From Minisyncoccota bacterium (GTDB lineage: Bacteria; Patescibacteriota; Minisyncoccia; Phycocordibacterales; Phycocordibacteraceae), in assembly GCA_041664265.1 (NCBI GenBank), contig JBAYLD010000001.1, positions 40,051-104,050 of the forward strand: 64,000 nucleotides of DNA. The letters run 5' to 3'. This document shows positions 2,223-24,625 of the stretch, one piece after another. How positions within the stretch are numbered: position 1 is the stretch's first letter; every line of letters begins with the position of its first letter. The notes beneath the pieces are model-generated. The model was not told where the DNA came from. It did not search any database and saw only the letters and a list, made by a program, of their open reading frames with translations. Both the position numbers and the translations under genes were made by a program.

Positions 2223-3287
2223 TTAATCAACGAGTTTCCAACCGACATACTGCCCGACTCCGAAGGGTAACGCAGTTTGTGTACCTATCCGATAAGACCG
2301 CGGTACATACCATGATTCCCCTCGAACAAGCGTAAGCGTGCGTGACGATTCGGGTAAGAGGTAGAGCCTCCTCGCATTTCGGCTCGTGAAGTTCACGAAG
2401 GTCTGGATACCATTTTCAGTAGCGATAATTTTATCCAGAGCATGTGCGTACAGCGGCATCAGGAACGGGCCAGTGTACGCACCACAGGCACAGGTTCCCT
2501 CTTCTACCTGTTTTGCAGACTTGTCGTGGAAGGCTGAGTCACCGCCGGCCATGACCCACGAATAATCTTTGGCGACCAGATCAATCAGCCCGCGACGATC
2601 ATCTTCCGTCTTGACCGGCGGCTTGCACACTGAGCGAACATCACCAAAGGACAGATCTTCATTCGTCGCCAAATGGTGAGCGGTCAGAGTCAAAGCGAAT
2701 CTGCCGGTCAGAGCCATATTCTCCCAATGCGGGATGCACCGCGCATCAGTACCATGCTCCCAGATGATGATCGCATCGGTCTCTTCAAGGAAGATCCGTG
2801 CGATCGGCAAGAATGCGAACTCTGCATCGCGATTATTGAAGATCATAGAGGGATGTTCGGGATGAAAGTGAACTCTCATCCCAACTTTGCCGCAGTGTTT
2901 TACGATCGGGAGAATCCGCCCATAGTGCTTCACGCCGTAGAGCGCGTTGGTCGTCCGTAGGAATGGATATACCTTCCCGTCCCTGATTCCAGCCTTTACA
3001 CATTCATCAATGTCCTTCTTCGTGGTTTCTTCTGTGATCAGAACGGACGGGATGAACGAAACACCTTTCCCGGAGACGAAAAACTGCTGATGTCCCGCCT
3101 GTGTCAAACCGTTCACGTACTTGGATACCTCTTGTTCTGTTCGTAAGCCCTTTTTCGTGTTCGGCATAGCGCCGAGCACGTCCGCCCCACCCGCGATAGC
3201 ATTCACAATGAGCGGCGCGATCAACTCCCCTTCTCGCAAGTGCGTGTGCACATCTGCGAGAGCATCAACTTCGATCATTTGATTCAT
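2223..3287 (-). CDS. pyrC: Dihydroorotase (homodimeric type)
   Basis: 'DVHTHLREG' metal-binding HxH, 'DSAFHDKS...CACGAYTGP' matching the E. coli PyrC 'GTDSAPH...CGCAG' region. The ORF extends to 3326; the start at 3287 (MNQM) has a GGAG SD and fits behind the pyrD stop. Confidence 0.75.
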   Translation of the reverse strand: MNQMIEVDALADVHTHLREGELIAPLIVNAIAGGADVLGAMPNTKKGLRTEQEVSKYVNGLTQAGHQQFFVSGKGVSFIPSVLITEETTKKDIDECVKAGIRDGKVYPFLRTTNALYGVKHYGRILPIVKHCGKVGMRVHFHPEHPSMIFNNRDAEFAFLPIARIFLEETDAIIIWEHGTDARCIPHWENMALTGRFALTLTAHHLATNEDLSFGDVRSVCKPPVKTEDDRRGLIDLVAKDYSWVMAGGDSAFHDKSAKQVEEGTCACGAYTGPFLMPLYAHALDKIIATENGIQTFVNFTSRNARRLYLLPESSRTLTLVRGESWYVPRSYRIGTQTALPFGVGQYVGWKLVD

Positions 3288-4251
3288 GAGGCGTTTTCTC
3301 CTTTCTCTTTTTTTCTTCTGCTTCATACCGCTCGACGAACTTCGTCGGCTTGCAGGGGTTGGTAAACAGAGTCCGCCAGAACTCGCCCTTGGTGGGCAAA
3401 TGGATCGTGCCGAAGCTTACGGCTCCTGCACCAAGCATCTCTCTTACATAGTCGAGATTCTTAAATTCCATGATGTCCGGACAAATGACCGGAAGTGCCC
3501 CTTGTCGGGCCAGTTTACCGACAACCGGCCAATTCAGCAGTTGCGCCAGCTCGCCCGACACACCGCCCCCACCTCCTCCGACTCTCTTTTCGAGCCGCCA
3601 GAGGGGGCTTTTTGCTTGGCCGAAGATCACTTCCCACGGCACGCTGTTGAGGCTGATCGCCTCGGCGATACCTTTGAGACTTTCCGCTATCTTCTCGTAC
3701 GCCTGGACGACCGACACTTTGACGATGACCGGATGCCGCGTGACTGCCTTGACAGCCTTCACGCTGTCGATCACCTCATCAGCAGAAGGCATCCCGTGGC
3801 CTGTGTTCGGGCACGAGGGGTTAAGTTCGATCGCGGCCAGTCTCAATTGATTGAGGAATTCGGTCATGTACACCAGCTCTTTGGTCGTCCCATACAGCGA
3901 CACAATGATCGAATACCGATCGAAGTCTATCTTCGGCGCGACATTAAGCCACCACCATTTGAATCCTTTATTGGTGAGGCCGACTTTGTTGACCGCACCC
4001 CCAGTGATGAGCTTCATACAGCTCCATGGACTTATCAGGAGCCAAGTCAGTGGATTCCACCACTGAAAGTTTCCTCTCCGCGATTTAAGCGTTAAGGTCT
4101 TCAACACGACCTCGAATAACTCGGGCTTGATGAAGCCGAGCTTCACCAGCCACTTCTCCCAGGGCCAGCCCTTGCCGTCGAAGGCGAGGGCGCCGCTCGC
4201 GACCACATACCGCAGTACATGGCCGTTTGACAATGTTATTCCTTTCATCAC
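3265..4251 (-). CDS. pyrD: Dihydroorotate dehydrogenase (class 1-like)
   Basis: 'IELNPSCPNT' matches the DHOD catalytic-loop signature 'ELNLSCPNV'. A Gly-rich FMN-phosphate loop lies near the C-terminus. Adjacent to pyrC. Confidence 0.7.
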   Translation of the reverse strand: MMKGITLSNGHVLRYVVASGALAFDGKGWPWEKWLVKLGFIKPELFEVVLKTLTLKSRRGNFQWWNPLTWLLISPWSCMKLITGGAVNKVGLTNKGFKWWWLNVAPKIDFDRYSIIVSLYGTTKELVYMTEFLNQLRLAAIELNPSCPNTGHGMPSADEVIDSVKAVKAVTRHPVIVKVSVVQAYEKIAESLKGIAEAISLNSVPWEVIFGQAKSPLWRLEKRVGGGGGGVSGELAQLLNWPVVGKLARQGALPVICPDIMEFKNLDYVREMLGAGAVSFGTIHLPTKGEFWRTLFTNPCKPTKFVERYEAEEKKRKEKTPHESNDRS

Positions 4252-4359
4252 GAGACACCTCCTTTTCTTTGTTTTATTGTTGTATTTCTTTCAATACCTA
4301 TAAAGGGCATGTCGATTCTCTCGACTCCGTGGCAACCCTAACTGAAAAAAGGACAGAAA

Positions 4360-5862
4360 TCAAACTCCGGCACCGTACCGCTCTTTCAGGTACTCGATAA
4401 AATAACGGCTGTTCGGATATTCTCCCGTCGCCCGCTTCACCAGGTCGGCGACGCGATATCGCCTACCGTGGCGATAAATGTTTTCCCGAAGCCATTCGCG
4501 CGGCGTCGCAAAGTCGCCTGCCGCTATTTTTTCAGACAAATCGGGAACGGCTCGCTGCATGGCGGTGTAGAACTGGGCAGCATAGAGCGTACCAAGCGTA
4601 TACGCGGGGAAGTTGCCGATATCCCCGACCGCCCAATGCATATCCTGCAAGACGCCGAGCCGATCATTCGGAACACTGATACCGAGATATTTTTTCATCT
4701 TGGCGTTCCAGATCGCAGGCAAGTCCTCAAGAGGGAGCGTCCCCTCGATCATCTCCTTCTCAATCTCGAAACGAAGGATGACGTGGAGATTATAGGTTAC
4801 TTCGTCTGCCTCGGTGCGAATAAGAGACGGCTCGACCCTGTTGATGATCCGCATAAATTCACTAAGGGGAATTTTCTTGAACGGCTCTGGGAATTCTTTC
4901 CGGATCTTCGGGTAAAAATACTTCCAAAATGCCGTGCTTCTGCCGATATTATTCTCCCAGAGCCGCGACTGCGACTCATGGATGCTTGCAAATGACGACT
5001 CCCCGAGCGGCGTGCCGAAGTGCCGGAGAGGCAATCCTTGTTCATAGAGCCCGTGGCCGGTCTCGTGAATCGTCGAGCCGAGCGCATACATGAGATCATC
5101 TTCTCGCATCCGCGTCGTGATGCGGACATCCTGCGTATGGAAGGACGCGGTAAACGGATGCGGGCTCTGGTCCAGCCGCCCTGCGGCATAATCGAAGCCC
5201 ATCTGCTCAGAGACAAATCGGTTGAACGCCAACTGTTGGTCGAGCGGGAACGCACCGAGGATACGCGCCGGGTCGACTTTGTCACCGGAGCGCACGAGCG
5301 CACCGATAAAAGGGACGAGGAACTGTTTTAGATCACTGAACAAAGCTTCAATACTTTGAACGGTCGAGCCCGGCTCATACTCGTCGATTAACGCGTCGTA
5401 GGGGGAATCATTGAAGCCGACGAGTCCTGCTTCTTCACGCTTCAGATCCACAATCTTCTTCAACCAGGGGAGAAACATGCCGAAATCGCTCTCCTCCCGC
5501 GCGCGCACCCAAGCGGCATAGGCTCTCGACGTTGTTTCTGACATCTGTGCGACAAACGCTTCCGATAGTTTCTTCTGGCGTGCATAGGTACGCCACGTCT
5601 CGGTAACAATCGCTGCGTTCCCTCCCGAGAGTTTTTTCGCATCGACTTGTTTCTTCAGCTTCGAGAGCAGCCGGTCATCATCGATCGCGGACAGCTTCTG
5701 ATGCGTGATGCCGTTGATGCATGCGAGTGCGTTCGCGCGCGCTTCGACCCCCTTCCTCGGCAGATACACTTCTTGATCCCAACTTAATACATCGCCGACC
5801 GAAGCAAGACGCGCAATCTCGATGAGGCGCTTTTTTAAGATCTTGAGAGAATCTGCCGCCAT
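4360..5862 (-). CDS. M32-family carboxypeptidase (carboxypeptidase Taq-like)
   Basis: 'HETGHGLYEQG' HExxH zinc motif typical of M32. Length about 500 aa. Confidence 0.75.
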   Translation of the reverse strand: MAADSLKILKKRLIEIARLASVGDVLSWDQEVYLPRKGVEARANALACINGITHQKLSAIDDDRLLSKLKKQVDAKKLSGGNAAIVTETWRTYARQKKLSEAFVAQMSETTSRAYAAWVRAREESDFGMFLPWLKKIVDLKREEAGLVGFNDSPYDALIDEYEPGSTVQSIEALFSDLKQFLVPFIGALVRSGDKVDPARILGAFPLDQQLAFNRFVSEQMGFDYAAGRLDQSPHPFTASFHTQDVRITTRMREDDLMYALGSTIHETGHGLYEQGLPLRHFGTPLGESSFASIHESQSRLWENNIGRSTAFWKYFYPKIRKEFPEPFKKIPLSEFMRIINRVEPSLIRTEADEVTYNLHVILRFEIEKEMIEGTLPLEDLPAIWNAKMKKYLGISVPNDRLGVLQDMHWAVGDIGNFPAYTLGTLYAAQFYTAMQRAVPDLSEKIAAGDFATPREWLRENIYRHGRRYRVADLVKRATGEYPNSRYFIEYLKERYGAGV

Positions 5863-10273: not shown

Positions 10274-10344
10274 TGCGGGTTCGTCTAATGGTAGGACACA
10301 TCCCTCTGGAGGATGGTATTGGGGTTCGAGTCCCTGACCCGCAG
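10274..10344 (+). tRNA. tRNA-Gln (anticodon CUG)
   Basis: Cloverleaf drawn by hand: acceptor TGCGGGT/ACCCGCA, anticodon stem CATCC/GGATG with loop CTCTGGA, T-loop TTCGAGT. No CCA encoded. Confidence 0.65.
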
Positions 10345-11958
10345 CAATCGTGGATTTTCATGTGCGATGACTGCGTAATCCTCTTTCGTTAAGCCGTCGT
10401 TTGTCGGTTCTAACGTCCCTTTTTCTTCCTCAACGGCAGATGACACTTTCGATATGCGCTCAAGCAGAATATCCGCATTAACCCTCAGCATCTTGTCGAT
10501 TACCTCGTGGTTCGAACCTAAATTGGCGAGAATGCTTCTTCGGGCCTTGCGATCATCGGAATCGTCTTTCTCAAAGGCGATCAATGCGCGCTCAGCGAAG
10601 TTGAAACCGCGCTCAGCGACTGCGAGCCAATCCCCGGCTCCATCATCGCTTGCCGCCATTTCAGCTTCCATGCGTTGTTTGTCCGCTTTGAGTGCCGCAG
10701 ACTTCGCGCGGAAGACATCCTCTGGGATCTCATCATTCATTCTCATGTTCACAAGAGCATCCATCCGGCGCACGCAATCAGCGAGGGCCTTCTTCTGGTT
10801 CTCGGATACTGCTTTGGTTTCCTGGCCTTCCTCCTTATCCATTTCGCGCAGTGCATCAAGCGCCCATGCTTTGAACTCGGGAGGAACGCTGTAATCCACA
10901 AGACTGCTCATCACCTGTGCTTCGAGGACTTTCTCTTCGATGGATCCTTGTGTGCAAACATAATCCTTGTGATGGGTACAATGATAGAAGATGTAGGAAC
11001 GCACCTCGCCTGAGGCGAGTTTCTTATACTTCCTCTCTGCTGTGATTGCCGCCCCACACACACCACATCGCATGTGACCACGATACGCGAACTCGTGCGT
11101 CTTCGGACGTGGGCGATCAGCCCTGCCAAGCAGGAACTGTACGCGATCGAATTCATCCTTGGTGACCATCGCAACGTGGTTACCCTTGCACCAATTGCCA
11201 CTCCCTAGAGGAAATTCATACTCGCCGTAATAGAACGGGCGAATGAATGTCAGGTAGACCAGACTGCGAGGGAGCGGTTTGTTGCCGTTGCTCTTTCCTC
11301 CTCTTGCGTGCGCACGAAGGCCCCACTCCTCGCCCGCAATCTTCCAGATTTGCGGCACGGTGTACTTGCCTGTAAGCATGAGGTCCCACATCTTACGCAC
11401 GAGATCGAATCGCTCTGGATCGACTAGGATTCGCTTCTTTCCGCGTTCGGCGAACTTCTCATTTAGATAACCAAGCGGAGCAGAACTTGGATAATCTCCA
11501 TTCCGAGCCTTCATGCTCGTACCGCGCTTCACATCCTGGCCCTTCTTCGCCGATTCATACTGAGACTGCGAGAGCGCCATTTGAAGCATCCATATGCCTG
11601 CTGGATTGTTCTCGAAGTGATAGACACAGAAACGTAATTCCTTCAGGTTACCGTCACGCAGCATATAAGTGATGTTCCCCGCGTCTATTTCGTTTCGTGA
11701 TAGCCGATCCGGTTGCCACGCCAAAAGACCTCGGCGTTCGCCCTTGCTGATGCGTTCCAGCATTTCAGAGAATGCCGGACGGTTGAATGGTTTGAATGCG
11801 CTTCTCTCTTCAACGATAAACTCGACGTCGAATCCAGGGAATGCTTTGAGTACTTGTTCTTTTTGCGCAGGGATTGATATCGCCTGACGTTCTTTATCCT
11901 CGCTGGATTTTCTCAGGTACGCGAAATACCGGATAGCTGCCTCTTTTGTCTTGGTCAT
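10285..11958 (-). CDS. Large serine recombinase (phage-type integrase)
   Basis: N-terminal resolvase domain 'YLRKSSEDKERQ', recombinase domain, zinc ribbon 'CGVCGAAITAE...YHCTHH', coiled-coil. 557 aa. Confidence 0.85.
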   Translation of the reverse strand: MTKTKEAAIRYFAYLRKSSEDKERQAISIPAQKEQVLKAFPGFDVEFIVEERSAFKPFNRPAFSEMLERISKGERRGLLAWQPDRLSRNEIDAGNITYMLRDGNLKELRFCVYHFENNPAGIWMLQMALSQSQYESAKKGQDVKRGTSMKARNGDYPSSAPLGYLNEKFAERGKKRILVDPERFDLVRKMWDLMLTGKYTVPQIWKIAGEEWGLRAHARGGKSNGNKPLPRSLVYLTFIRPFYYGEYEFPLGSGNWCKGNHVAMVTKDEFDRVQFLLGRADRPRPKTHEFAYRGHMRCGVCGAAITAERKYKKLASGEVRSYIFYHCTHHKDYVCTQGSIEEKVLEAQVMSSLVDYSVPPEFKAWALDALREMDKEEGQETKAVSENQKKALADCVRRMDALVNMRMNDEIPEDVFRAKSAALKADKQRMEAEMAASDDGAGDWLAVAERGFNFAERALIAFEKDDSDDRKARRSILANLGSNHEVIDKMLRVNADILLERISKVSSAVEEEKGTLEPTNDGLTKEDYAVIAHENPRLLRVRDSNPNTILQRDVSYH

Positions 11959-13200: not shown

Positions 13201-14988
13201 CTATCCTAGTCGTGGCATTTTGCTGATGGCTATATTTCGGTCATTGCCATCGCTGCTAGATACAACGCGTATTCCAGTCTCTTCAAGTGGAGTCTTTAAT
13301 CTGTTGATTTCACGCGTTAGAGCAGACGGACTCGCTGGAAGACGGTTATCCGCGATTTTGTCGTCCATGGCCTGGTCCTTGAATGCCTTAAACAGTTGTC
13401 TCGGGCTGCCTTCCCACATGCCATCGTGCGCATTGACGATGGCAACAAGGATAGTGGCAACGGTATTGTCGTTGATTAGTTCCTCGCTCTGACTGTTTAT
13501 GTTGTGGAAGTACGCGGCAAGGAACGCTTCTTGGCCGATTCCCAGTGCTTCGGCGACTGCGCAACCCCACAATGCAAAATCTGCCATTCGTGGAAGCTCG
13601 TCCACCTTGATGTTAGGTTTTAAGGCCATCGCTTTCGCAACAGTGTCGTAAATTGCTCCGAGGATGCGAGGTCTAGCAACCTCGAAGTCAGCCATTAGAT
13701 CGTACTCCTGTCTGCGGTTGCTTTTGTCCATGCGTTCGAGCTTGAGCAGGAGGCTTCGTTCGAGCAGGTCCGCGCGGTTGGATGCGACGTTTATGCCGTT
13801 TATGCCTATGCTAGCCATGACGTAGCGGATCACGTCGTCATCGTTCGTGTACAGCTCGCGCTTGCTGAACCCTCCGCCGGTTATTGCCCGGCAGAGAAGA
13901 TCAGAAATCCAGTCAGGCATCTCCGATACGTTGTCGAAGAAGAGAAAGGCGTGATGGCCGAGCTGCTGGGCCAGGTCTCCCTCGTGGCGAGTCAGACTCA
14001 CGACCTCGATCTTGGAAGGGTCGATGAGCTTGCGCACGATGCGACTGAGCGTGGACTTCGCAGATCCCTGAGAACCGTACACATAGAGTGCTGGATGAGG
14101 CCAACCTGGAATATATGAAGCGACTAAATGCACGAGGAAGAGTGTTTGCTGTTCTGGATCGGTGATATTCACGAATTTCAGGACATCCCGCACCGATCCT
14201 CCCCGCACTGGTTCTACTTGCGGGGCAAGGTGCGAAAAGCGGCGAAAGAGCATCGGGACATCTGTCACAATGCTCCACCCCTCTTGTGTTATTCGAACCG
14301 CACGCCACTTCTTGTCGGCGAGGTCGTACCACACGGCTTCAGGTGTCTGAGCTATGCGATTAAAGAGTCGGTGTTCCTCGCACTCGTTGATGGCGCGGCC
14401 TTCGAGCAGACTAACGGCGTCTTTCATGCTCTCTCTGCCGGCTACGGTCTTTCCGCGCGTTAGGCGGTAGAATTCGCCACCGAGCCAGCGAGTGAGTGCG
14501 CCACTCCTGCAGGGCCAAACTTCCGAATGATCTTCAACAGGAATCCTAATATGAGCGACGTCATACTCGTCCTTAAACAAAGTGACGTTTGGGTTCTCCA
14601 GGATCATATTTACGAGTCGCGTAGACTGCGATGGTCCTTTTCCACCTTCACCGCTGTTCGCTTCTGCTAACTGAGCGAGTTTCTCGCGATTTCTCTCATG
14701 AGCAATCGATTCAATTAACGCATCAAACGTTTCGCGCAGATATTCATCATTAGGATACGGGAGTTTAGCCGTGGTATTCCATAACTGGACCTTCGGCCAT
14801 AATGCATCTACCGACTGTTTGTCTTCGGCTTCAATTCCTTTCATCAACCCATGCACGTATTCGTCAAAGAGATCTAGGCGCTCGAATTCTGGAATACGAA
14901 CTCCTTCGGGGACATCGGAAAAATGATAGAACGGATCGAACTTTTCATTTGGATTTAAAGTGCCGTTAGAGGCGATAATGTCTTTCAT
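13201..14988 (-). CDS. Phage/plasmid primase-helicase-like P-loop NTPase (P4/D5/VirE-family C-terminal domain)
   Basis: Walker A 'VYGSQGSAKSTL'. About 600 aa, with a domain order reminiscent of the D5_N plus primase-C/SF3 helicase type. On an integrative element. Confidence 0.5.
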   Translation of the reverse strand: MKDIIASNGTLNPNEKFDPFYHFSDVPEGVRIPEFERLDLFDEYVHGLMKGIEAEDKQSVDALWPKVQLWNTTAKLPYPNDEYLRETFDALIESIAHERNREKLAQLAEANSGEGGKGPSQSTRLVNMILENPNVTLFKDEYDVAHIRIPVEDHSEVWPCRSGALTRWLGGEFYRLTRGKTVAGRESMKDAVSLLEGRAINECEEHRLFNRIAQTPEAVWYDLADKKWRAVRITQEGWSIVTDVPMLFRRFSHLAPQVEPVRGGSVRDVLKFVNITDPEQQTLFLVHLVASYIPGWPHPALYVYGSQGSAKSTLSRIVRKLIDPSKIEVVSLTRHEGDLAQQLGHHAFLFFDNVSEMPDWISDLLCRAITGGGFSKRELYTNDDDVIRYVMASIGINGINVASNRADLLERSLLLKLERMDKSNRRQEYDLMADFEVARPRILGAIYDTVAKAMALKPNIKVDELPRMADFALWGCAVAEALGIGQEAFLAAYFHNINSQSEELINDNTVATILVAIVNAHDGMWEGSPRQLFKAFKDQAMDDKIADNRLPASPSALTREINRLKTPLEETGIRVVSSSDGNDRNIAISKMPRLG

Positions 14989-15487: not shown

Positions 15488-16237
15488 ATGAAATATAAAC
15501 ACATCATCGCGGGCGTATTTGGATTATTCCTCCTCTTTCCTTTCCATCATGCCTCCGCCAGCCTTCTTTGGTGTGATCCACTGTTAGGAGGCTGTAGCAA
15601 TCCATTCAGTGGAGTGGATCAGAGCATTCAGCAACAGCAATCACAGGCCCAAGCACAACAACAGTCGTGGCAACGAATACAAGACAAAGAGAGCGCACTA
15701 AAGTCGCAGTATGGCTATGCTGCATACACGTCCTGCACAGCTAATATGCTACATATCGACGGTGGAGACATTGCTCAAGTCACAATGTATCTCAATGCGG
15801 ATGAGCCGTGCATGGCGAGCTACAAATCGAAACAAGAACAAGCGGCAAGCACGCAATGCACATCACTGGGAAACGGTCGCTATAGTGGCAATTGCACATG
15901 CGGTGCTGGATACACGTTTAAAAATAACGTATGCACGCCAATCACCTGTGATGCGGGCTACATTTTAAGGGATAGCACCTGTGTATTAGGAACTCAGTTC
16001 TGCACCAGTAAATTTGGCTCCAACAGCGTATTTAACGGCAAGCTGTGCGACTGCGCATCCGGGTACAAGTTTAATGAATTCTTTGACTCGAGAGCACAGT
16101 GCGTAGCAGTCACTCCGGCTAAGACAACCGGCTCTCATCTTGCGGCTAATCAAATCGCCGCGATCCTCTCGCTGTTGCAGTCCTTCGGTGCCGATGCAAA
16201 AACAATCGCTAGTGTAAAAGCTGCGCTCGGGCAATAA
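15488..16237 (+). CDS. Secreted cysteine-rich protein with repeated C-x-C-x2-GY-x(n)-C modules and a Gln-rich linker
   Basis: Signal peptide 'MKYKHIIAGVFGLFLLFPFHHASA'. Modules 'CTCGAGYTFKNNVCTPITCDAGYILRDSTCV' and 'CDCASGYKFNE'. Confidence 0.55.
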   Translation: MKYKHIIAGVFGLFLLFPFHHASASLLWCDPLLGGCSNPFSGVDQSIQQQQSQAQAQQQSWQRIQDKESALKSQYGYAAYTSCTANMLHIDGGDIAQVTMYLNADEPCMASYKSKQEQAASTQCTSLGNGRYSGNCTCGAGYTFKNNVCTPITCDAGYILRDSTCVLGTQFCTSKFGSNSVFNGKLCDCASGYKFNEFFDSRAQCVAVTPAKTTGSHLAANQIAAILSLLQSFGADAKTIASVKAALGQ

Positions 16238-18109: not shown

Positions 18110-19165
18110 ATGCAAAATATGCAGACTCTACAAAAACCAATAGTCAGAGTCGCGCCCGCCATTAAGATAAAACGGGAAGAGACAAAGAAGAGCAAACCGC
18201 TTCGTATCGTCTCGCTTTTTTCCGGATCTGGAGGGATGGACCTAGGATTCCAACAGGAAGGATTTGAACTCGCATGGGCGAACGATGTGAACCATTGGGC
18301 TTGCGAGACCTTCAGGAAGAACTTTGGCGACCACATCGCAGAAGGCAGCATTGTCGACATCGAAAATAAAAAGATACCGAGCTGCGACGTTGTGCTTGGA
18401 GGATTTCCTTGTCAGGACTTTTCAATGCTGTGGAAGCGCATGGGGCTTAAAACGGACCGCGGGAATCTCTATCGGCAATTCGTGCGCGTTGTCCTCGACA
18501 AGAAGCCGAAGCTATTCGTTGCCGAGAATGTGAAAGGCATCATGAGCGCCAATGGAGGCAAGGCCGTGGAACAGATAAAAAAGGACTTCGAGAAAGTCGG
18601 CTATAGCGTAAGCGTCAATCAGATCAACTTTGCCAATTACGGAGCACCGCAGCTGCGCGAGCGCGTGTTGATTGTAGGCGTGCGCAAGGATCTTAAGAAG
18701 GAATTCAAGCTGCCCGCCCCGACGCACTCTCCAGGCAACTATGTTACTGCCAAGGAGGCCTTAAAAGGCGTCCAGCGGGTGCCCTTTAACAATGAACATC
18801 AGAACATTGCTCCTTCAACCATTGCGAAATTGAGGATCATACCTCCAGGCGGAAACTTCACAGACATTCCGAAGAGTTCCCCTCACTACGTGAAAGGCAT
18901 GATATCCCACGTTTATCGGCGTTTGCATCCGGACAAACCTTCGACTACCATCATCGCAGGCGGCGGTGGCGGCACATGGGGTTACCACTATGAAGAGCTG
19001 CGCCCTCTCACAAACAGAGAGCGCGCCCGCTTGTTTGGCTATCCCGACGACTTTGTCTTTGTTGGATCGATAACAGAGGTCAGGCGGCAGATTGGAAACT
19101 CTGTGCCCCCTGCCGGGATTAGGCCTATTGCTAAAGCAATAAAACAATTTTTAGATGAACTATAA
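18110..19165 (+). CDS. DNA cytosine-5 methyltransferase (Type II R-M methyltransferase)
   Basis: Motif I 'LFSGSGGMDLGF', motif IV 'GGFPCQDFS', motif VI 'ENVKG', motif X 'QIGNSVPP'. Confidence 0.9.
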   Translation: MQNMQTLQKPIVRVAPAIKIKREETKKSKPLRIVSLFSGSGGMDLGFQQEGFELAWANDVNHWACETFRKNFGDHIAEGSIVDIENKKIPSCDVVLGGFPCQDFSMLWKRMGLKTDRGNLYRQFVRVVLDKKPKLFVAENVKGIMSANGGKAVEQIKKDFEKVGYSVSVNQINFANYGAPQLRERVLIVGVRKDLKKEFKLPAPTHSPGNYVTAKEALKGVQRVPFNNEHQNIAPSTIAKLRIIPPGGNFTDIPKSSPHYVKGMISHVYRRLHPDKPSTTIIAGGGGGTWGYHYEELRPLTNRERARLFGYPDDFVFVGSITEVRRQIGNSVPPAGIRPIAKAIKQFLDEL

Positions 19166-19176
19166 AATCAGATTGC

Positions 19177-20229
19177 ATGGAGCTCCTGTACTCGAACATC
19201 AAACCGTGCGAGTCTGATAACTCGTCGTTTAGCGAAGCCTTTGAGGCCGGCGTTGTAAAGTCTGACAGCATAAAGATCGCGACAGGCTACATAACAGAAG
19301 AGTCTCTTTTGGAATTGAAATCGATTCTGTCGTTTTATTTTGACGAGGGAAAAATCAAGAAGTGCAGCCTGGTGCTTGGCATGCACGGCAGAGAGGGTTT
19401 TACTCAGGCGCAATACGAAGCTGCAATAAATCTAGCTATGCTCCTTAAGGAAAGGGACATCGGCGCAGTATACGTTTGCACCGCCTTTAAATTCCACGGC
19501 AAGACCTATGTGTTTTATAAAGCCGATGAGCCTGTCTCTGCTGTGATGGGATCGTCGAACTTGAGCAATATCGTCGACAGCCGCGTATGGGAAGTCGACG
19601 CTCTTTTTACCGAGGCGAAGATCCTCTCGGAACTCGATGCGCTGCACTCCAGTCTGGTTGACAAGGCTTGCCACAACATTCTCGAAATGGAAAAGCCTTC
19701 CACGTTTAACCACGCGAGAGACTTGCTGAAGGACAGGATAGGAGTCACTAAAGCTGACCCCGAGACATACCGCGAAGCTGAAAACTCCGTAACTGATAAG
19801 GTCTTCGACTTGCCGCTGAAACCGGAAGCAAAAAGCAACTTGAACGCTTACTTCGGCAAAGGCAGAATGTCCAAGGCAACCGGGGCAATTCGTCCCCGCC
19901 ATTGGTATGAAGTCGAATTGATTGTTCCGATAGAGATAACATCCTCGCCGTCATATCCGAAAAACGGGTCCGTCTTCCACGTCTTCACCGACGACGGGTG
20001 GTCCTTTAACTGTAAAGTCGAAGGACAGAACGGAAAGAACTTTAGATCGGAGAATGACCTGAGGACTCTGGGCCGATGGATAAAGGGGCGGCTGGAAAAT
20101 TCCGGCTGCCTCAAAGTCGGGCAGCCAGTGACCGAGGAAGTTCTGAAAAACTACGGGCGCCGCACGCTGTCTCTCAAGCAGACAACTAAACCGGATGTGT
20201 GGCTGTTGGATTTCTCAAACAAAGCATGA
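19177..20229 (+). CDS. PLD-family restriction endonuclease (R.CglI/R.NgoAVII-like: N-terminal HKD nuclease plus C-terminal DNA-binding domain)
   Basis: HKD-like motif 'HGKTYVFYKADEPVSAVMGSSNLS' (H-x-K ... GS-x-N). About 350 aa. Immediately after the m5C methyltransferase and translationally coupled to the next gene. Confidence 0.55.
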   Translation: MELLYSNIKPCESDNSSFSEAFEAGVVKSDSIKIATGYITEESLLELKSILSFYFDEGKIKKCSLVLGMHGREGFTQAQYEAAINLAMLLKERDIGAVYVCTAFKFHGKTYVFYKADEPVSAVMGSSNLSNIVDSRVWEVDALFTEAKILSELDALHSSLVDKACHNILEMEKPSTFNHARDLLKDRIGVTKADPETYREAENSVTDKVFDLPLKPEAKSNLNAYFGKGRMSKATGAIRPRHWYEVELIVPIEITSSPSYPKNGSVFHVFTDDGWSFNCKVEGQNGKNFRSENDLRTLGRWIKGRLENSGCLKVGQPVTEEVLKNYGRRTLSLKQTTKPDVWLLDFSNKA

Positions 20230-22109
20230 CCTTCCTAGAAAACTACCTGCAGCGAGTTGAAGCCGACAAGCCCGGCCTCGCGCTAGCTTTGAAGAAGAGC
20301 GCGGAGGAATTTGCGAGTCTCCACATCGACAGCTTTGACTTCAATAGCCATAAGTCGGGACTGCTCTACGGACATGTGCAGAGCGGCAAGACGGGACAAA
20401 TGCTTGCAATCGCGGCAGCCGCGGCGGATCGCGGGTTCAAGTTTTTCATATTATTCACGACCGACAATGTAATACTGCACAAGCAGACCCTTGAACGCGC
20501 GCAGCAGTATCTCGGCGGATTTATGGCGGGCTTCAATGTGCTCGGCGAGATGGACGAGGAGGCATTCTTGACCCGCAGCTTGGCGATGCCCACGATGCTC
20601 GTGCTCAAAAAGAATACGAGCGTTCTCAAGACCTGGTGCAACAACATTGAAAGCAATAAAACCTACAAAGACGAACCTCTGTTCCTCTTGGATGACGAGG
20701 CAGATGCGTCGAGCCTCAATACAAAAGTAAATCAGAATGACCAGAGCACAATAAACCAACTGCTCGAAAGAATCGACGGGCAAGCCCCATCAAGCATGTA
20801 CCTCCATGTAACAGCTACGCCACAATCGCTCGTCCTCCAGGTATCTAATTCCATGTGGAAACCGGAGTTCTCCTTCTACCTGCCACCCGGGGAGTCGTAT
20901 CTCGGCGGGGACTTTTTCTACGGCGAGAATTCACAAAGCCTCGTTATGACAGAAGACAACGAGCGCGATGATTTATTGAAGGCGGAACACGTTCCTGTCG
21001 GCCTGCGCGAGGCCGTGCTGCACTTCCTCGTTGCCGCTTCGGAGTTGTTCCTTACGAAAGAGAAACCGGTATGCACACTGCTAATCCATCCTGGAGCAAA
21101 AATCAGCGAACACGCGACCGTAAGAACGAAAATAGAAAAGTTCCTCGAAGGAGTAAAAAGCGACCTGATAGCAAACTCATCGACTCTCGAATTCGCCATC
21201 CGGGACGCATGGGAGGAACTTAAGAAAACGAAACCGGACATTCACAGCTTCGAAGAGATACTCGGGTTCCTCAGAACGCGGATGCCGAATGTGAACATCA
21301 TCGTCCTGAACTCGAAAACTCCAGTTGGTTCTGTGTATGACAAGGGTCTTAATATCGTCATCGGAGGCAATACTCTCGGCCGAGGAGTCACTTTCCCAGG
21401 CCTGCAGGTGGTCTACTACTGCCGAAGCGCAAAAACACCGCAGGCTGACACCTCGTGGCAGCACGCGCGCATATTCGGCTATGACCGGGAACCTGGGTTG
21501 TGCAGGATCTTCAGCCCCCGCCCACTAATGAAGCTGTTCCAGGAGTTGAATGACGCAAACAATGCTCTGTTTGAAACGTTGAGGATTAAGGGTCCGCAAG
21601 CAGTAAGCATTCTTACGCCGGCAGGGGCGCGTCCAACCAGAACAAATGTGGTTTCTCGGGAAGACCTAATCGTTATTTCAGGAGGAGTAAACTACTTCCC
21701 GCTGCTTCCAACCGCGGCAAGCATTAAGAGCTTAGATGCCGAACTTGGCTCTGCGGATGATGAGCGCGAAATTACACTCGCAGAGGCTGAAAAGATTTTG
21801 AGGCTTGTAAGCGTGGAGAAAGAAGACTTGTGGAATCAACACTCGTTCCCTGATTGCGTTGAGACTCTAAAGAAGAGCAAAAAGTATTCCTGCCGACTCA
21901 TAGTTCGGACCAATAGAAGTATTGGCAAAGGAACGCGAACACTCCTCTCTGAGAACGATCGAGAACTCGGCAGCAGATACGTCGATCAGATTGTCCTCTC
22001 TATGTACCGCCTGAACGGAGAAGCAAGCAAGGGATGGGAAGATAGGCCTCTATGGGTGCCGAACATAAAGTTCCCCGATGGTACTTATTTCCACTACCAA
22101 TTAAAATAA
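20226..22109 (+). CDS. Helicase-like ATPase with C-terminal Z1-type domain (H/N subunit of a CglI/NgoAVII-type ATP-dependent restriction system)
   Basis: Walker A 'GHVQSGKTGQM', DEAD-box 'FLLDDEADAS'. ATGA start/stop overlap with the R gene. About 627 aa, the size of H.CglI. Confidence 0.55.
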   Translation: MTFLENYLQRVEADKPGLALALKKSAEEFASLHIDSFDFNSHKSGLLYGHVQSGKTGQMLAIAAAAADRGFKFFILFTTDNVILHKQTLERAQQYLGGFMAGFNVLGEMDEEAFLTRSLAMPTMLVLKKNTSVLKTWCNNIESNKTYKDEPLFLLDDEADASSLNTKVNQNDQSTINQLLERIDGQAPSSMYLHVTATPQSLVLQVSNSMWKPEFSFYLPPGESYLGGDFFYGENSQSLVMTEDNERDDLLKAEHVPVGLREAVLHFLVAASELFLTKEKPVCTLLIHPGAKISEHATVRTKIEKFLEGVKSDLIANSSTLEFAIRDAWEELKKTKPDIHSFEEILGFLRTRMPNVNIIVLNSKTPVGSVYDKGLNIVIGGNTLGRGVTFPGLQVVYYCRSAKTPQADTSWQHARIFGYDREPGLCRIFSPRPLMKLFQELNDANNALFETLRIKGPQAVSILTPAGARPTRTNVVSREDLIVISGGVNYFPLLPTAASIKSLDAELGSADDEREITLAEAEKILRLVSVEKEDLWNQHSFPDCVETLKKSKKYSCRLIVRTNRSIGKGTRTLLSENDRELGSRYVDQIVLSMYRLNGEASKGWEDRPLWVPNIKFPDGTYFHYQLK

Positions 22110-22218
22110 CATTATGACCAAACAGGAGAGGGATTAAAGGAGGAAACGAGTAAGGGCGAATGAGTTGGGCTCGCGGTTTTTATGGCAAATGATAGGCTTT
22201 TCATGAAAACCTCCTTAT

Positions 22219-24501
22219 ATGGCGATAGAGAAAATCATTTCCATAGAGAACATAGGGCGCTTACGGGCATATAAGGCTCGGGGCGACCTCTCTTTCAAGC
22301 GCTATAACCTCGTCTTTGCTGAGAATGGGCGTGGCAAGTCGACCTTGAGCGCAATACTCCGCTCGATGCGAGACGGAGACGACTCCCATATCAAAGCGAG
22401 GTACTCAGTAGGAGCGACTGCCCCCGCGAAAGTTGACGTGCGAATAAATGGTTTGAACGTCAAATACGACGGCAAGTCGTGGGACACAACTGTACCGAAC
22501 CTCGCAATTTTTGACGCTCTATTCACGAGTGAGAATGTACATTCTGGTGACTCAGTCGGAACGAGCCATCGTCGCAACCTATTGCAGATCATGCTCGGTG
22601 CGCAAGGTGTTAACCTTGCAAAGAAGGTTGGTGAACTTGATGAGCAGATTCGGAATGCAAATACGAGTATCACCGAGCGCAAGCGTGCGATCGCTAGGTA
22701 TCTAGAACCTCATGCCGATGTTGACGACTTCGTGCGTCGTCCGGTTGTGGGTGGCATCGCTACACAGATAAAAAATAAGAAGGCTGCACTAGAAGCTGCG
22801 CGCCAAGCAGGTGAGATACAGACACGCACGTCTATCGAAACCATTCCGTTGCCGTCACTGCCTGAGAAGTTCGACGAACTCCTTGATCGGGGCTTGAAGC
22901 AAGTATCTACTGATGCGGAGAAGAAGGTTCGTGAGCAAATAGAACATCACCACATGGGTGAGGATGGTGAGGAGTGGCTTTCACAGGGGCTTGCATACGT
23001 CGTGGACGACAAGTGTCCTTTCTGTGGCTCTGCTATAGCGAGGGGCGACCAAGTGAAGCTATACAAGGAATATTTCAGTGATGCTTACGACACGCACAGG
23101 TCCGCGATTTCCGATGCTCGTAGTGTAGTCATCGGATCTCTCGGCGATACTGCTCGTGCTCGGTTCGTAAGCGGAAAAATAGAACGCAACAAGACTGCCA
23201 TGGAGTTCTGGAAGGCGTATGTGCCAGGTCCTTTCCCCGTATTCAAGGACGAGGGTGTGGTTATAGAGGCACTTGAGGGCGTGTATACGGAAGGTCTGCG
23301 ACTCATAGATAAAAAACTTGGGGCACCGCTCGATACTGTCAATCCCGATAAGCCGTACAAAGATGCGGTAGCGAAGTATGAGACCGTGCGAGCGATGTTC
23401 GATGCATATAACGAGGTGGCAAATAATGCAGACAAAAGCATCGCAGAAGTAAAGCGTACGAGTCGTTCCGCAGACCCACGAACTATACAAGCTGAACTCA
23501 AGGACCTTGAACTGACCGAGCGTCGGCACGCCGATCCAGTGAAGACCTTGTGCGAAGAATACGTTGCCGAAGTTGTGGCAAAGAAGACCCTCGACACACA
23601 GAAGGATACTGCGAAAGATGCTCTTGATGCATATGCCGAAACGGCGCTCAATGGATACCAAGAGGAAATCAATCGGTTGCTATCTCAGTTCGGAACAGGC
23701 TTCACCATTCATAGTACGGTGCGCAGCTATGTTGGTGGTGCACCAACTTCGTCCTACCAACTCATGATTGATAGCTGCCTCATTGATTTGGGTGACGATA
23801 ACACAACAGGCAAGCCCTGCTTCAAGACCTCTATGAGTTCAGGAGACAAGAGTGCACTCGCGCTTGCTTTCTTCCTTGCTCATCTCGACAAAGATGCATC
23901 CAGGTCGCAGAAGATAGTCGTCTTCGACGACCCGTTCACCAGCTTTGACCGTTCGCGTCGTGAGCAGACCGTGCAGTTGATAAAGAAGTTTGGGGAGTCA
24001 TGCGCGCAAGTTGTCGTACTCTCTCATGATCCCTCGTTCTTGAAGCTTCTCTCTGACCGTCTAGACAAGGCAGATACGAGACAGATGCAGATTTCGCGAG
24101 CAGGAGTTAACTCCACTCTCGAAGACTGGGATGCAGACAAGGAAAACCAAGGTCTCTACTTCAAGGATCGCGATGATCTACGAGCCTACATTGATGGCAC
24201 TTCGACCACAGCACTTCAGGATGTGGCGAGAAAGATACGTCCGGTGCTCGAAGGATACATGCGAATTCGCTTCGCAGGAGGATTCCCCGACAACATGTGG
24301 CTAGGCGACATGATCGGGCATGTGCGCACGGCAGGAGCAACGCACCCGCTGTTTCCGGAACTCCAAAATCTATCGGAAATAAACGATTACTCGAAACGCT
24401 ACCACCACGAGACGAACCCAAACTGGAACGCGGAACCCATCTCCGACGGTGAGCTCAAAACGTTCGTGAACAGGACTCTCTTCCTGGTAGGAGGGTACTA
24501 G
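22219..24501 (+). CDS. RloC-like ABC-type ATPase with zinc hook (candidate restriction-linked anticodon nuclease)
   Basis: N-terminal Walker A 'ENGRGKSTL', CxxC hook 'CPFCGS' within predicted coiled coils, ABC signature/D-loop 'SSGDKSALALAF...IVVFDDPFTSFD', about 150-aa C-terminal extension. Located right after the R-M genes. Confidence 0.45.
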   Translation: MAIEKIISIENIGRLRAYKARGDLSFKRYNLVFAENGRGKSTLSAILRSMRDGDDSHIKARYSVGATAPAKVDVRINGLNVKYDGKSWDTTVPNLAIFDALFTSENVHSGDSVGTSHRRNLLQIMLGAQGVNLAKKVGELDEQIRNANTSITERKRAIARYLEPHADVDDFVRRPVVGGIATQIKNKKAALEAARQAGEIQTRTSIETIPLPSLPEKFDELLDRGLKQVSTDAEKKVREQIEHHHMGEDGEEWLSQGLAYVVDDKCPFCGSAIARGDQVKLYKEYFSDAYDTHRSAISDARSVVIGSLGDTARARFVSGKIERNKTAMEFWKAYVPGPFPVFKDEGVVIEALEGVYTEGLRLIDKKLGAPLDTVNPDKPYKDAVAKYETVRAMFDAYNEVANNADKSIAEVKRTSRSADPRTIQAELKDLELTERRHADPVKTLCEEYVAEVVAKKTLDTQKDTAKDALDAYAETALNGYQEEINRLLSQFGTGFTIHSTVRSYVGGAPTSSYQLMIDSCLIDLGDDNTTGKPCFKTSMSSGDKSALALAFFLAHLDKDASRSQKIVVFDDPFTSFDRSRREQTVQLIKKFGESCAQVVVLSHDPSFLKLLSDRLDKADTRQMQISRAGVNSTLEDWDADKENQGLYFKDRDDLRAYIDGTSTTALQDVARKIRPVLEGYMRIRFAGGFPDNMWLGDMIGHVRTAGATHPLFPELQNLSEINDYSKRYHHETNPNWNAEPISDGELKTFVNRTLFLVGGY

Positions 24502-24625
24502 GAGTTTAACCAATAGTACTCTCACCACGCCACCTTCGCAGTCCGAAACACCGTATCCTTGCTCCTCGCGGCGGTTCTAACGTCCTTTAGGCACTGCAGC
24601 TCTTCGTCGCTCTGTAATTTTTTTG

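Follow-up and report, generated by a model that had tools for sequence, protein, structure and literature searches.

A predicted CglI/NgoAVII-family restriction–modification cassette on a probable serine-recombinase island of a Patescibacteria genome

We analysed a 64,000-nucleotide (nt) stretch of DNA from a Minisyncoccota bacterium (Patescibacteriota; assembly GCA_041664265.1, contig JBAYLD010000001.1, positions 40,051 to 104,050), referred to here as the window. According to its list of open reading frames (ORFs), positions 18110-22109 hold three co-oriented genes on the plus strand in the order M-R-H. The M gene (18110..19165, +) encodes a C5-cytosine DNA methyltransferase of 351 amino acids (aa), recognized by PF00145, TIGR00675 and the PADLOC profile MTase_II; some public gene callers choose a later ATG at 18119, which gives a protein of 348 aa. 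The R gene (19177..20229, +) encodes a PLD-nuclease/B3-like restriction endonuclease subunit of 350 aa, assigned by Pfam, PADLOC, a match to PDB 4rct and Foldseek. The H gene (20226..22109, +) encodes a DEAD-Z1 helicase-like ATPase subunit, assigned by the PADLOC profile Helicase_II and by its identity to the N/H protein of NgoAVII. It is 627 aa long when read from its ATG; the 636 aa of the mechanical ORF list result from a GTG further upstream, at 20199. We took the ATG as the start because the PADLOC Helicase_II profile, of 621 positions, is matched over its whole length by residues 1-623. M and R are separated by 11 nt, and reading the sequence at 20226-20229 shows an ATGA in which the stop of R overlaps the start of H. 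The sizes, coordinates and order of the three genes and the ATGA overlap agree with a first-pass annotation made from the DNA alone. All three proteins are full length against their PADLOC profiles, and their homology to known systems is, as judged by sequence, strong and beyond chance (Pfam E-values from 1e-27 to 1e-78; PDB match at 7e-77). The region very probably represents an intact three-gene restriction–modification (RM) cassette of the CglI/NgoAVII family, with a CglI-like mechanism, lying on a probable integrated island.

Both of the Pfam domains by which the NgoFVII/NgoAVII endonuclease family is defined are present in the R protein: PF09565 (PLD; 6e-27) and PF20731 (B3-like; 1.4e-34). 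R also aligns end to end with PADLOC REase_II (5e-100) and over its full length with the R.NgoAVII crystal structure (PDB 4rct, E 7.4e-77), being 42% identical to the gonococcal protein. An AlphaFold2 model of R was built from 13 homologues, with a mean predicted local distance difference test score of 83.7. Foldseek matched the model to 4rct with a template modelling (TM) score of 0.85 and to the DNA-bound B3 domain in 4rd5/4rdm with TM scores of 0.93-0.94 and a root-mean-square deviation of 1.6 Å; BfiI came after the NgoAVII structures, followed by other PLD-family enzymes. [quoted passage not shown] The PLD nuclease domain at the N-terminus (aa 1-167; 19177..19677, +), with H107, K109, GSSN 125-128 and E139, aligns to R.NgoAVII residues 3-164, and the B3-like region (19747..20226, +) is 52% identical to the R.NgoAVII B3 domain. 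An NCBI protein 100% identical to R, from a 'Candidatus Paceibacterota bacterium' metagenome-assembled genome (MAG), is already named 'restriction endonuclease PLD domain-containing protein'.

The R.NgoAVII structure paper assigns H104, K106, residue 124 and E137 to a single shared PLD active site, K212 and K275 to phosphate clamps, R285 to bidentate reading of the central G, and positions 241 and 243 to water-mediated contacts with the central C. In the window R, the catalytic positions are kept as H107, K109, N128 and E139 (H104, K106, N124 and E137 in R.NgoAVII), and the DNA-contacting positions as K215, E245, E247, K280 and R290 (K212, 241, 243, K275 and R285). Residue conservation was read from alignments of 82 relatives for M, 81 for R and 74 for H; nearly all the functional residues and motifs listed here for the three proteins are invariant in them. 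Across the R alignment the catalytic residues are invariant or near-invariant, and R290, E245 and E247 are conserved in every relative. The HKD-like motif reads H107-G-K109 ... G125-S-S-N128. It lacks a conserved Asp, and K and G are separated by 15 residues, compared with 11 in the canonical HxK(x)4D(x)6GSxN. The atypical spacing had been remarked on earlier, correctly; as R.NgoAVII has 14, the trait belongs to the family. We further noticed that the text of the R.NgoAVII paper prints D124, D241 and D243, while the PDB chain and the translated gonococcal genome have N124, E241 and E243.

The H protein matches PADLOC Helicase_II end to end (2e-182) and is 37% identical to N/H.NgoAVII (235/628, over residues 4-617). 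Its DEAD domain, the N-core RecA-like domain (20313..20825, +; aa 30-200), gives weak ResIII and SWI2_SNF2 Pfam hits and is placed by its motifs. The Z1 domain, or C-core (21003..21584, +; aa 260-453), is matched by PF10593 at 8e-31 and likewise carries its motifs, and the C-terminal DNA-binding domain (21633..22085, +; aa 470-620) matches PDB 6f1s (3.5e-16), the C-terminal domain of H.CglI and the only solved piece of that protein. The paper on H.CglI (PMC5861437) defines a Walker A motif with Q in place of G, a DDEAD Walker B, a Z1-specific H/H motif, a motif V Arg and a shortened QxxR motif VI, and reports that mutants lose ATPase activity and cleavage. Motif alignment placed each of these in the window H: Walker A with the same Q-for-G replacement at 49-56 (GHVQSGKT), Walker B at 156-160 (DDEAD), the H/H motif at H288/H296 (H282/H290 in H.CglI, with a spacing of eight residues in both), the motif V Arg at R386 (R379) and QxxR at Q412/R415 (Q405/R408). 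Motif III, also among the features defined for H.CglI, is TATP at 196-199. The DEAD and Z1 motifs are invariant in the H relatives. Both the DEAD-box motifs and the helicase/Z1 label given to H at first reading are borne out by these matches.

The M protein scores 9.3e-78 against PF00145, 8e-72 against TIGR00675 and 1e-116 against PADLOC MTase_II. Motifs I, IV, VI, VIII and X are intact (FSGSG 37-41, PCQ 100-102, ENV 139-141, QLRER 181-185 and GNSVP 329-333) and invariant in its relatives. M is 59% identical to M.NgoAVII over nearly its full length (196/334, residues 19-344), with 61/108 identities in the target-recognition domain (TRD). Identity to M.CglI is about 60%, an approximate figure because the M.CglI sequence was read by optical character recognition (OCR) from a figure in the paper's supplement. 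The authors of that paper give 62% between M.CglI and M.NgoAVII, so M resembles either protein about as much as the two resemble each other. A TRD core, NFTDIPK...YVKGMISHVYRR...GGGGTWGYH, is common to M and the M.NgoAVII/M.CglI proteins. On this sequence evidence M belongs to the M.CglI/M.NgoAVII (GCSGC) clade.

The gonococcal NgoAVII locus that served as the reference for the M, R and H identities (L088, NZ_CP119142.1) was taken from the PLSDB plasmid collection; NZ_CP119142.1 and NZ_CP119140.1 are 2.17-Mb Neisseria gonorrhoeae records filed as plasmids and are evidently chromosomes. Linkage was counted separately, by scanning a genome collection with the R alignment. The scan found 188 loci, of which the best 80 were kept, and the linkage counts refer to these. 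M lies directly upstream of R in 80/80 of them, so that in none of these relatives is it an orphan methyltransferase. H lies directly downstream of R in 77/77 loci with a long enough contig and is missing only at contig ends. The hosts are Patescibacteria, Chloroflexota, Bacillota, Pseudomonadota, Omnitrophota, Bacteroidota, Campylobacterota and one archaeon; Neisseria and Corynebacterium loci were not among the best 80 of the 188. The closest relatives, from Patescibacteria, have only M, R and H in common, and their flanks differ; therefore the cassette moves as a unit. One relative, from Giovannonibacteria (L001), has a second Z1-helicase-like gene (2688-4757, +), whose product is 25% identical to H (E 3e-34). 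It sits between a tRNA-Lys/tRNA-Ser pair and the M gene of that locus, so that two DEAD-Z1 proteins lie side by side.

The same linkage bears on whether R and H form one system at all. R could be an enzyme of Type IIS that acts alone, like BfiI, with the Z1 helicase belonging to another system, for example one resembling MZA, given that BfiI is the next structural neighbour of R after NgoAVII and that H gives a weak MzaC hit. BfiI, however, reaches a TM score of only 0.34 and 11% identity to R, R and H share an ATGA overlap in the window and lie next to each other in all relatives with a long enough contig, and the H C-terminal domain has a fold specific to H.CglI. We consider this reading exceedingly improbable, and both of its components were rejected as candidates: the stand-alone enzyme on account of the linked, overlapping H gene and the low BfiI score, and the MZA system on an MzaC score for H of 71.7 bits, confined to the Z1 region, against an NCBIfam equivalog cut-off of 1500. 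Decay was also weighed. Island-borne RM systems often decay, and the window shows no avoidance of the target site, so an active methyltransferase might accompany a dead R or H. Against this, the three ORFs are full length with every catalytic motif intact, and identical cassette proteins in the same gene order occur on contigs from four separate samples, including GCA_041659725.1. A decaying or partly inactive cassette is in our view highly improbable. By all the sequence- and fold-level criteria examined, the cassette is a member of the CglI/NgoAVII family, the identity first proposed for it, with R aligned in full to 4rct, H carrying the motor motifs and the 6f1s domain, and M at the identity to M.NgoAVII given above; the biochemical properties of the family we infer for it.

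In the CglI and NgoAVII systems, methylation of GCSGC needs M alone, and the asymmetric site GCCGC is bound by the B3 domains of an R2H2 complex. H hydrolyses about 170 ATP per second and translocates on double-stranded DNA (dsDNA), mainly downstream, and the DNA is cut 6-7 nt downstream of the site upon collision of complexes, with one nuclease site per R2H2 (PMC4267653, PMC5737866, PMC5861437). We assign the same mechanism to the window cassette with high confidence, because every sequence requirement of the CglI/NgoAVII scheme is found in it. Stand-alone M would protect the GCSGC sites of the host, which read GCCGC on one strand and GCGGC on the other. R would dimerise through its PLD domains into one nuclease active site, with the B3-like domains reading the recognition site, and H would act as a DEAD-Z1 helicase-like dsDNA translocase. 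The R2H2 complex would then bind an unmethylated site, hydrolyse ATP, move along the DNA and cleave 6-7 nt downstream when complexes meet. Subunit stoichiometry, ATP dependence, cleavage position and GCCGC specificity are all properties that we infer by analogy with the characterised systems.

Specificity is the less secure part of this assignment. The first-pass annotation had offered GCSGC or GCCGC. The affinity of M, through its TRD region, to proteins of the GCSGC clade favours that proposal; the two alternatives amount to a single duplex site, since a GCCGC strand is paired with a GCGGC one. Recognition of GCCGC is likely, favoured by the conserved central-pair contacts in R and the shared TRD core in M. 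It is less secure because the tip of the B3 N-arm diverges, because BceSIV reads GCWGC and because related methyltransferases vary. The cassette could, then, share family and mechanism with CglI and NgoAVII and recognize another sequence, with W or N as the central base, as in BceSIV, or a site altered through the N-arm tip. The family holds both GCCGC and GCWGC enzymes, and related methyltransferases span GCSGC, GCWGC, GCAGC and GCNGC. What argues against a different site is that R290, the counterpart of the central-G reader R285, and E245 and E247, at the positions contacting the central C, are kept in the window and in all the R relatives, and that M stands as close to M.NgoAVII and M.CglI as these do to each other and shares the TRD core. 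We regard a different recognition sequence as unlikely.

Several observations weigh against the reading of the cassette as an active, GCCGC-specific member of the family. The N-arm tip (aa 228-241 of R), a part that in NgoAVII shifts onto the DNA, is identical to R.NgoAVII at only 6/14 positions and has a one-residue insertion. Our check of DNA contacts covers 5/9 base- or phosphate-contacting residues, those named in the text of the structure paper. The methyltransferases related to this clade include GCWGC, GCAGC and GCNGC enzymes, which leaves the central base uncertain. With 242 sites in the window (observed/expected 0.86 and 1.01), GCCGC/GCGGC shows no depletion, a result that neither supports nor refutes activity. 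Lastly, a promoter and terminator scan of the locus returned no promoter-like sites, terminators at background level and no consensus.

In this Candidatus Paceibacterota genome, the cassette is probably cargo on a lower-GC serine-recombinase island of about 14 kb, alongside another candidate defence gene. A large serine recombinase of 557 aa (10285..11958, -; PF00239 3e-17, PF13408 2e-8, PHROG integrase 2e-54) marks the left edge of the probable island. Its last ~20 codons overlap, on the opposite strand, a tRNA-Gln(CTG) gene (10274..10345, +; ARAGORN; Rfam tRNA, 53 bits). This suggests that the C-terminal tail of the recombinase reads through into host DNA after integration. A repeat search found a 17-nt direct repeat, a candidate core of the attachment (att) site, with its left copy CGGTTCTAACGTCCCTT at 10405..10421 (+) and its right copy CGGTTCTAACGTCCTTT at 24572..24588 (+). 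The repeat has the form CGGTTCTAACGTCC(C/T)TT and occurs only twice in the window; two matches arose in 0/100 shuffles. The left copy falls inside the recombinase ORF, at about codon 513/557, past the integrase-profile match (residues 3-489), and the right copy lies 71 nt after the gene for an AAA_13 ATPase described below, so that the pair brackets the stretch from recombinase to AAA_13. Only this placement is suggestive, because chance repeats of similar length occur elsewhere in the region. GC content is ~0.49-0.52 over 12-24 kb and ~0.55-0.57 on both sides. From left to right the genes are a Na+/H+ exchanger, tRNA-Gln, the recombinase, genes without a family match along with a LOOT RNA hit, the RM cassette and the AAA_13 gene; to the right of the last follow ABC-transporter and CTP-synthase genes.

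That the cassette rides on a serine-recombinase island, as initially proposed, is made plausible by the recombinase, the tRNA-Gln, the repeat and the lower GC. Its boundaries are another matter: no empty integration site that could confirm them was found among contigs with identical flanking proteins, all of which, from four samples, have the island in place. The island cannot be called a prophage, because apart from the recombinase none of its proteins scanned against PHROG and Pfam (595, 249, 169, 151, 119 and 71 aa) gave a match. The NCBI copy of this contig (L082) came with a gene list that lacks the recombinase gene. Two loci in Patescibacteria, L003 (15-1649, -) and L005 (355-1374, -), have serine-recombinase homologues at 34% identity, 3-4 kb upstream of M and in the same relative orientation. 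A third locus, L007, has a tRNA-Gln(CTG) gene (2395-2468, +) 2.5 kb upstream of M. An att site shared with L007 was considered and rejected: its DNA similarity to the window ends at the tRNA, and the 14-nt repeat is absent in L007.

The second candidate defence gene lies 110 nt downstream of H and encodes a 760-aa AAA_13/PDC-S06-like (SMC-like) ATPase (22219..24501, +; PF13166 2e-32, PADLOC PDC-S06 2e-70). PrrC is known to be linked to an RM system. The gene is on the same strand as the cassette, and besides its AAA_13 and PDC-S06 hits it gives a weak hit to the PrrC ATPase domain, so the locus might be a four-gene system in which the ATPase works with the cassette, for example as a PrrC/RloC-like fail-safe held by the RM complex. 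No AAA_13 homologue, however, was found within 6 kb of the cassette in the 80 related loci, CglI and NgoAVII function with three genes, and PDC-S06 is catalogued as a stand-alone candidate. Such a four-gene system seems to us very unlikely. Since it is unlinked to M-R-H in those loci, the AAA_13 gene is probably a further defence gene of the island, independent of the cassette. We also considered a combined variant, in which the N-arm tip gives the Patescibacteria clade a recognition or cleavage other than GCCGC and the AAA_13/PDC-S06 ATPase is coupled to the RM system as a PrrC-like back-up, and judge it quite unlikely. If true, either the altered site or the coupling would make the cassette a variant of the family and not a plain member.

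Other features of the probable island were seen in passing. A LOOT RNA hit in Rfam (RF03000; 15292-15418, +) scores 56.4 bits, with a gathering score of 46.4 (E 1.7e-8), and an inverted repeat (15344-15362/15424-15442) overlaps the match. Just downstream of the hit is an ORF for a Cys-rich protein of 249 aa (15488-16237) with a hydrophobic, signal-peptide-like N-terminus. The 595-aa protein (13201-14988, -) has a P-loop-like GSQGSAKST but is matched by none of Pfam, NCBIfam, PADLOC and PHROGs. Its gene may serve the element as one of the replication or primase-helicase type. The gap between H and the AAA_13 gene is filled on the minus strand by a mini-ORF of 30 codons (MKSLSFAIKTASPTHSPLLVSSFNPSPVWS; 22112-22204), whose ATG follows a perfect AAGGAGG at a distance of 5 nt; this may be due to chance.

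This family is already characterised structurally and mechanistically and has Pfam and PADLOC profiles. The window adds to it a clearly intact CglI/NgoAVII-type system, as far as sequence can tell, from a candidate-phyla-radiation genome, of little import beyond annotation, and opens no new mechanistic question. The comparison of loci also indicates that M-R-H moves between very distant phyla as one block, its flanks varying even among close relatives. For the host, the assignment predicts that GCSGC carries 5-methylcytosine and that unmethylated DNA meets an ATP-dependent barrier, which would be relevant to transforming related organisms. The type label has changed in the literature: the system is listed as Type II in REBASE and PADLOC, and a 2018 paper describes CglI as a Type I enzyme.

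The window cassette was compared with four known systems. BfiI (Type IIS, PDB 2c1l) has the same two-domain PLD and B3-like architecture, but cuts alone, without ATP and without a helicase partner gene, and its identity (11%) and TM score (0.34) to the window R are low. BceSIV/Bce14579I of Bacillus cereus, compared by description, also combines a PLD nuclease with an ATPase and needs nucleoside triphosphate hydrolysis. The recognition site of BceSIV is GCWGC, with cleavage reported on both of its sides; in the window R, the Arg and Glu residues by which NgoAVII reads the central C:G are retained. NgoAVII itself (Neisseria gonorrhoeae FA1090; PDB 4rct, 4rd5, 4rdm) has the same M-R-H order, with identities of 59% for M, 42% for R and 37% for H, all of them over almost the whole protein, and its R protein has the same PLD and B3-like folds and the same catalytic, clamp and central-base contacts. 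The two differ at the N-arm tip, where the window R has its one-residue insertion and 6/14 identities, in their hosts (Neisseria versus a Patescibacteria MAG) and in gene junctions: in Neisseria the ATGA overlap joins M and R and H follows directly after R, while in the window 11 nt separate M from R, and it is R and H that the overlap joins. For CglI (Corynebacterium glutamicum, R2H2), for which stress sensitivity has been reported, the comparison covers M (from the OCR-derived sequence, at ~60%), the H motifs and the H C-terminal domain. The motor is the same DEAD-Z1 type, with the Q-containing Walker A, DDEAD, the eight-residue H/H spacing, the motif V Arg and QxxR, and 6f1s is homologous to the C-terminal domain of the window H. 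CglI lies in prophage CGP3, and the window cassette likewise lies on a probable mobile element.

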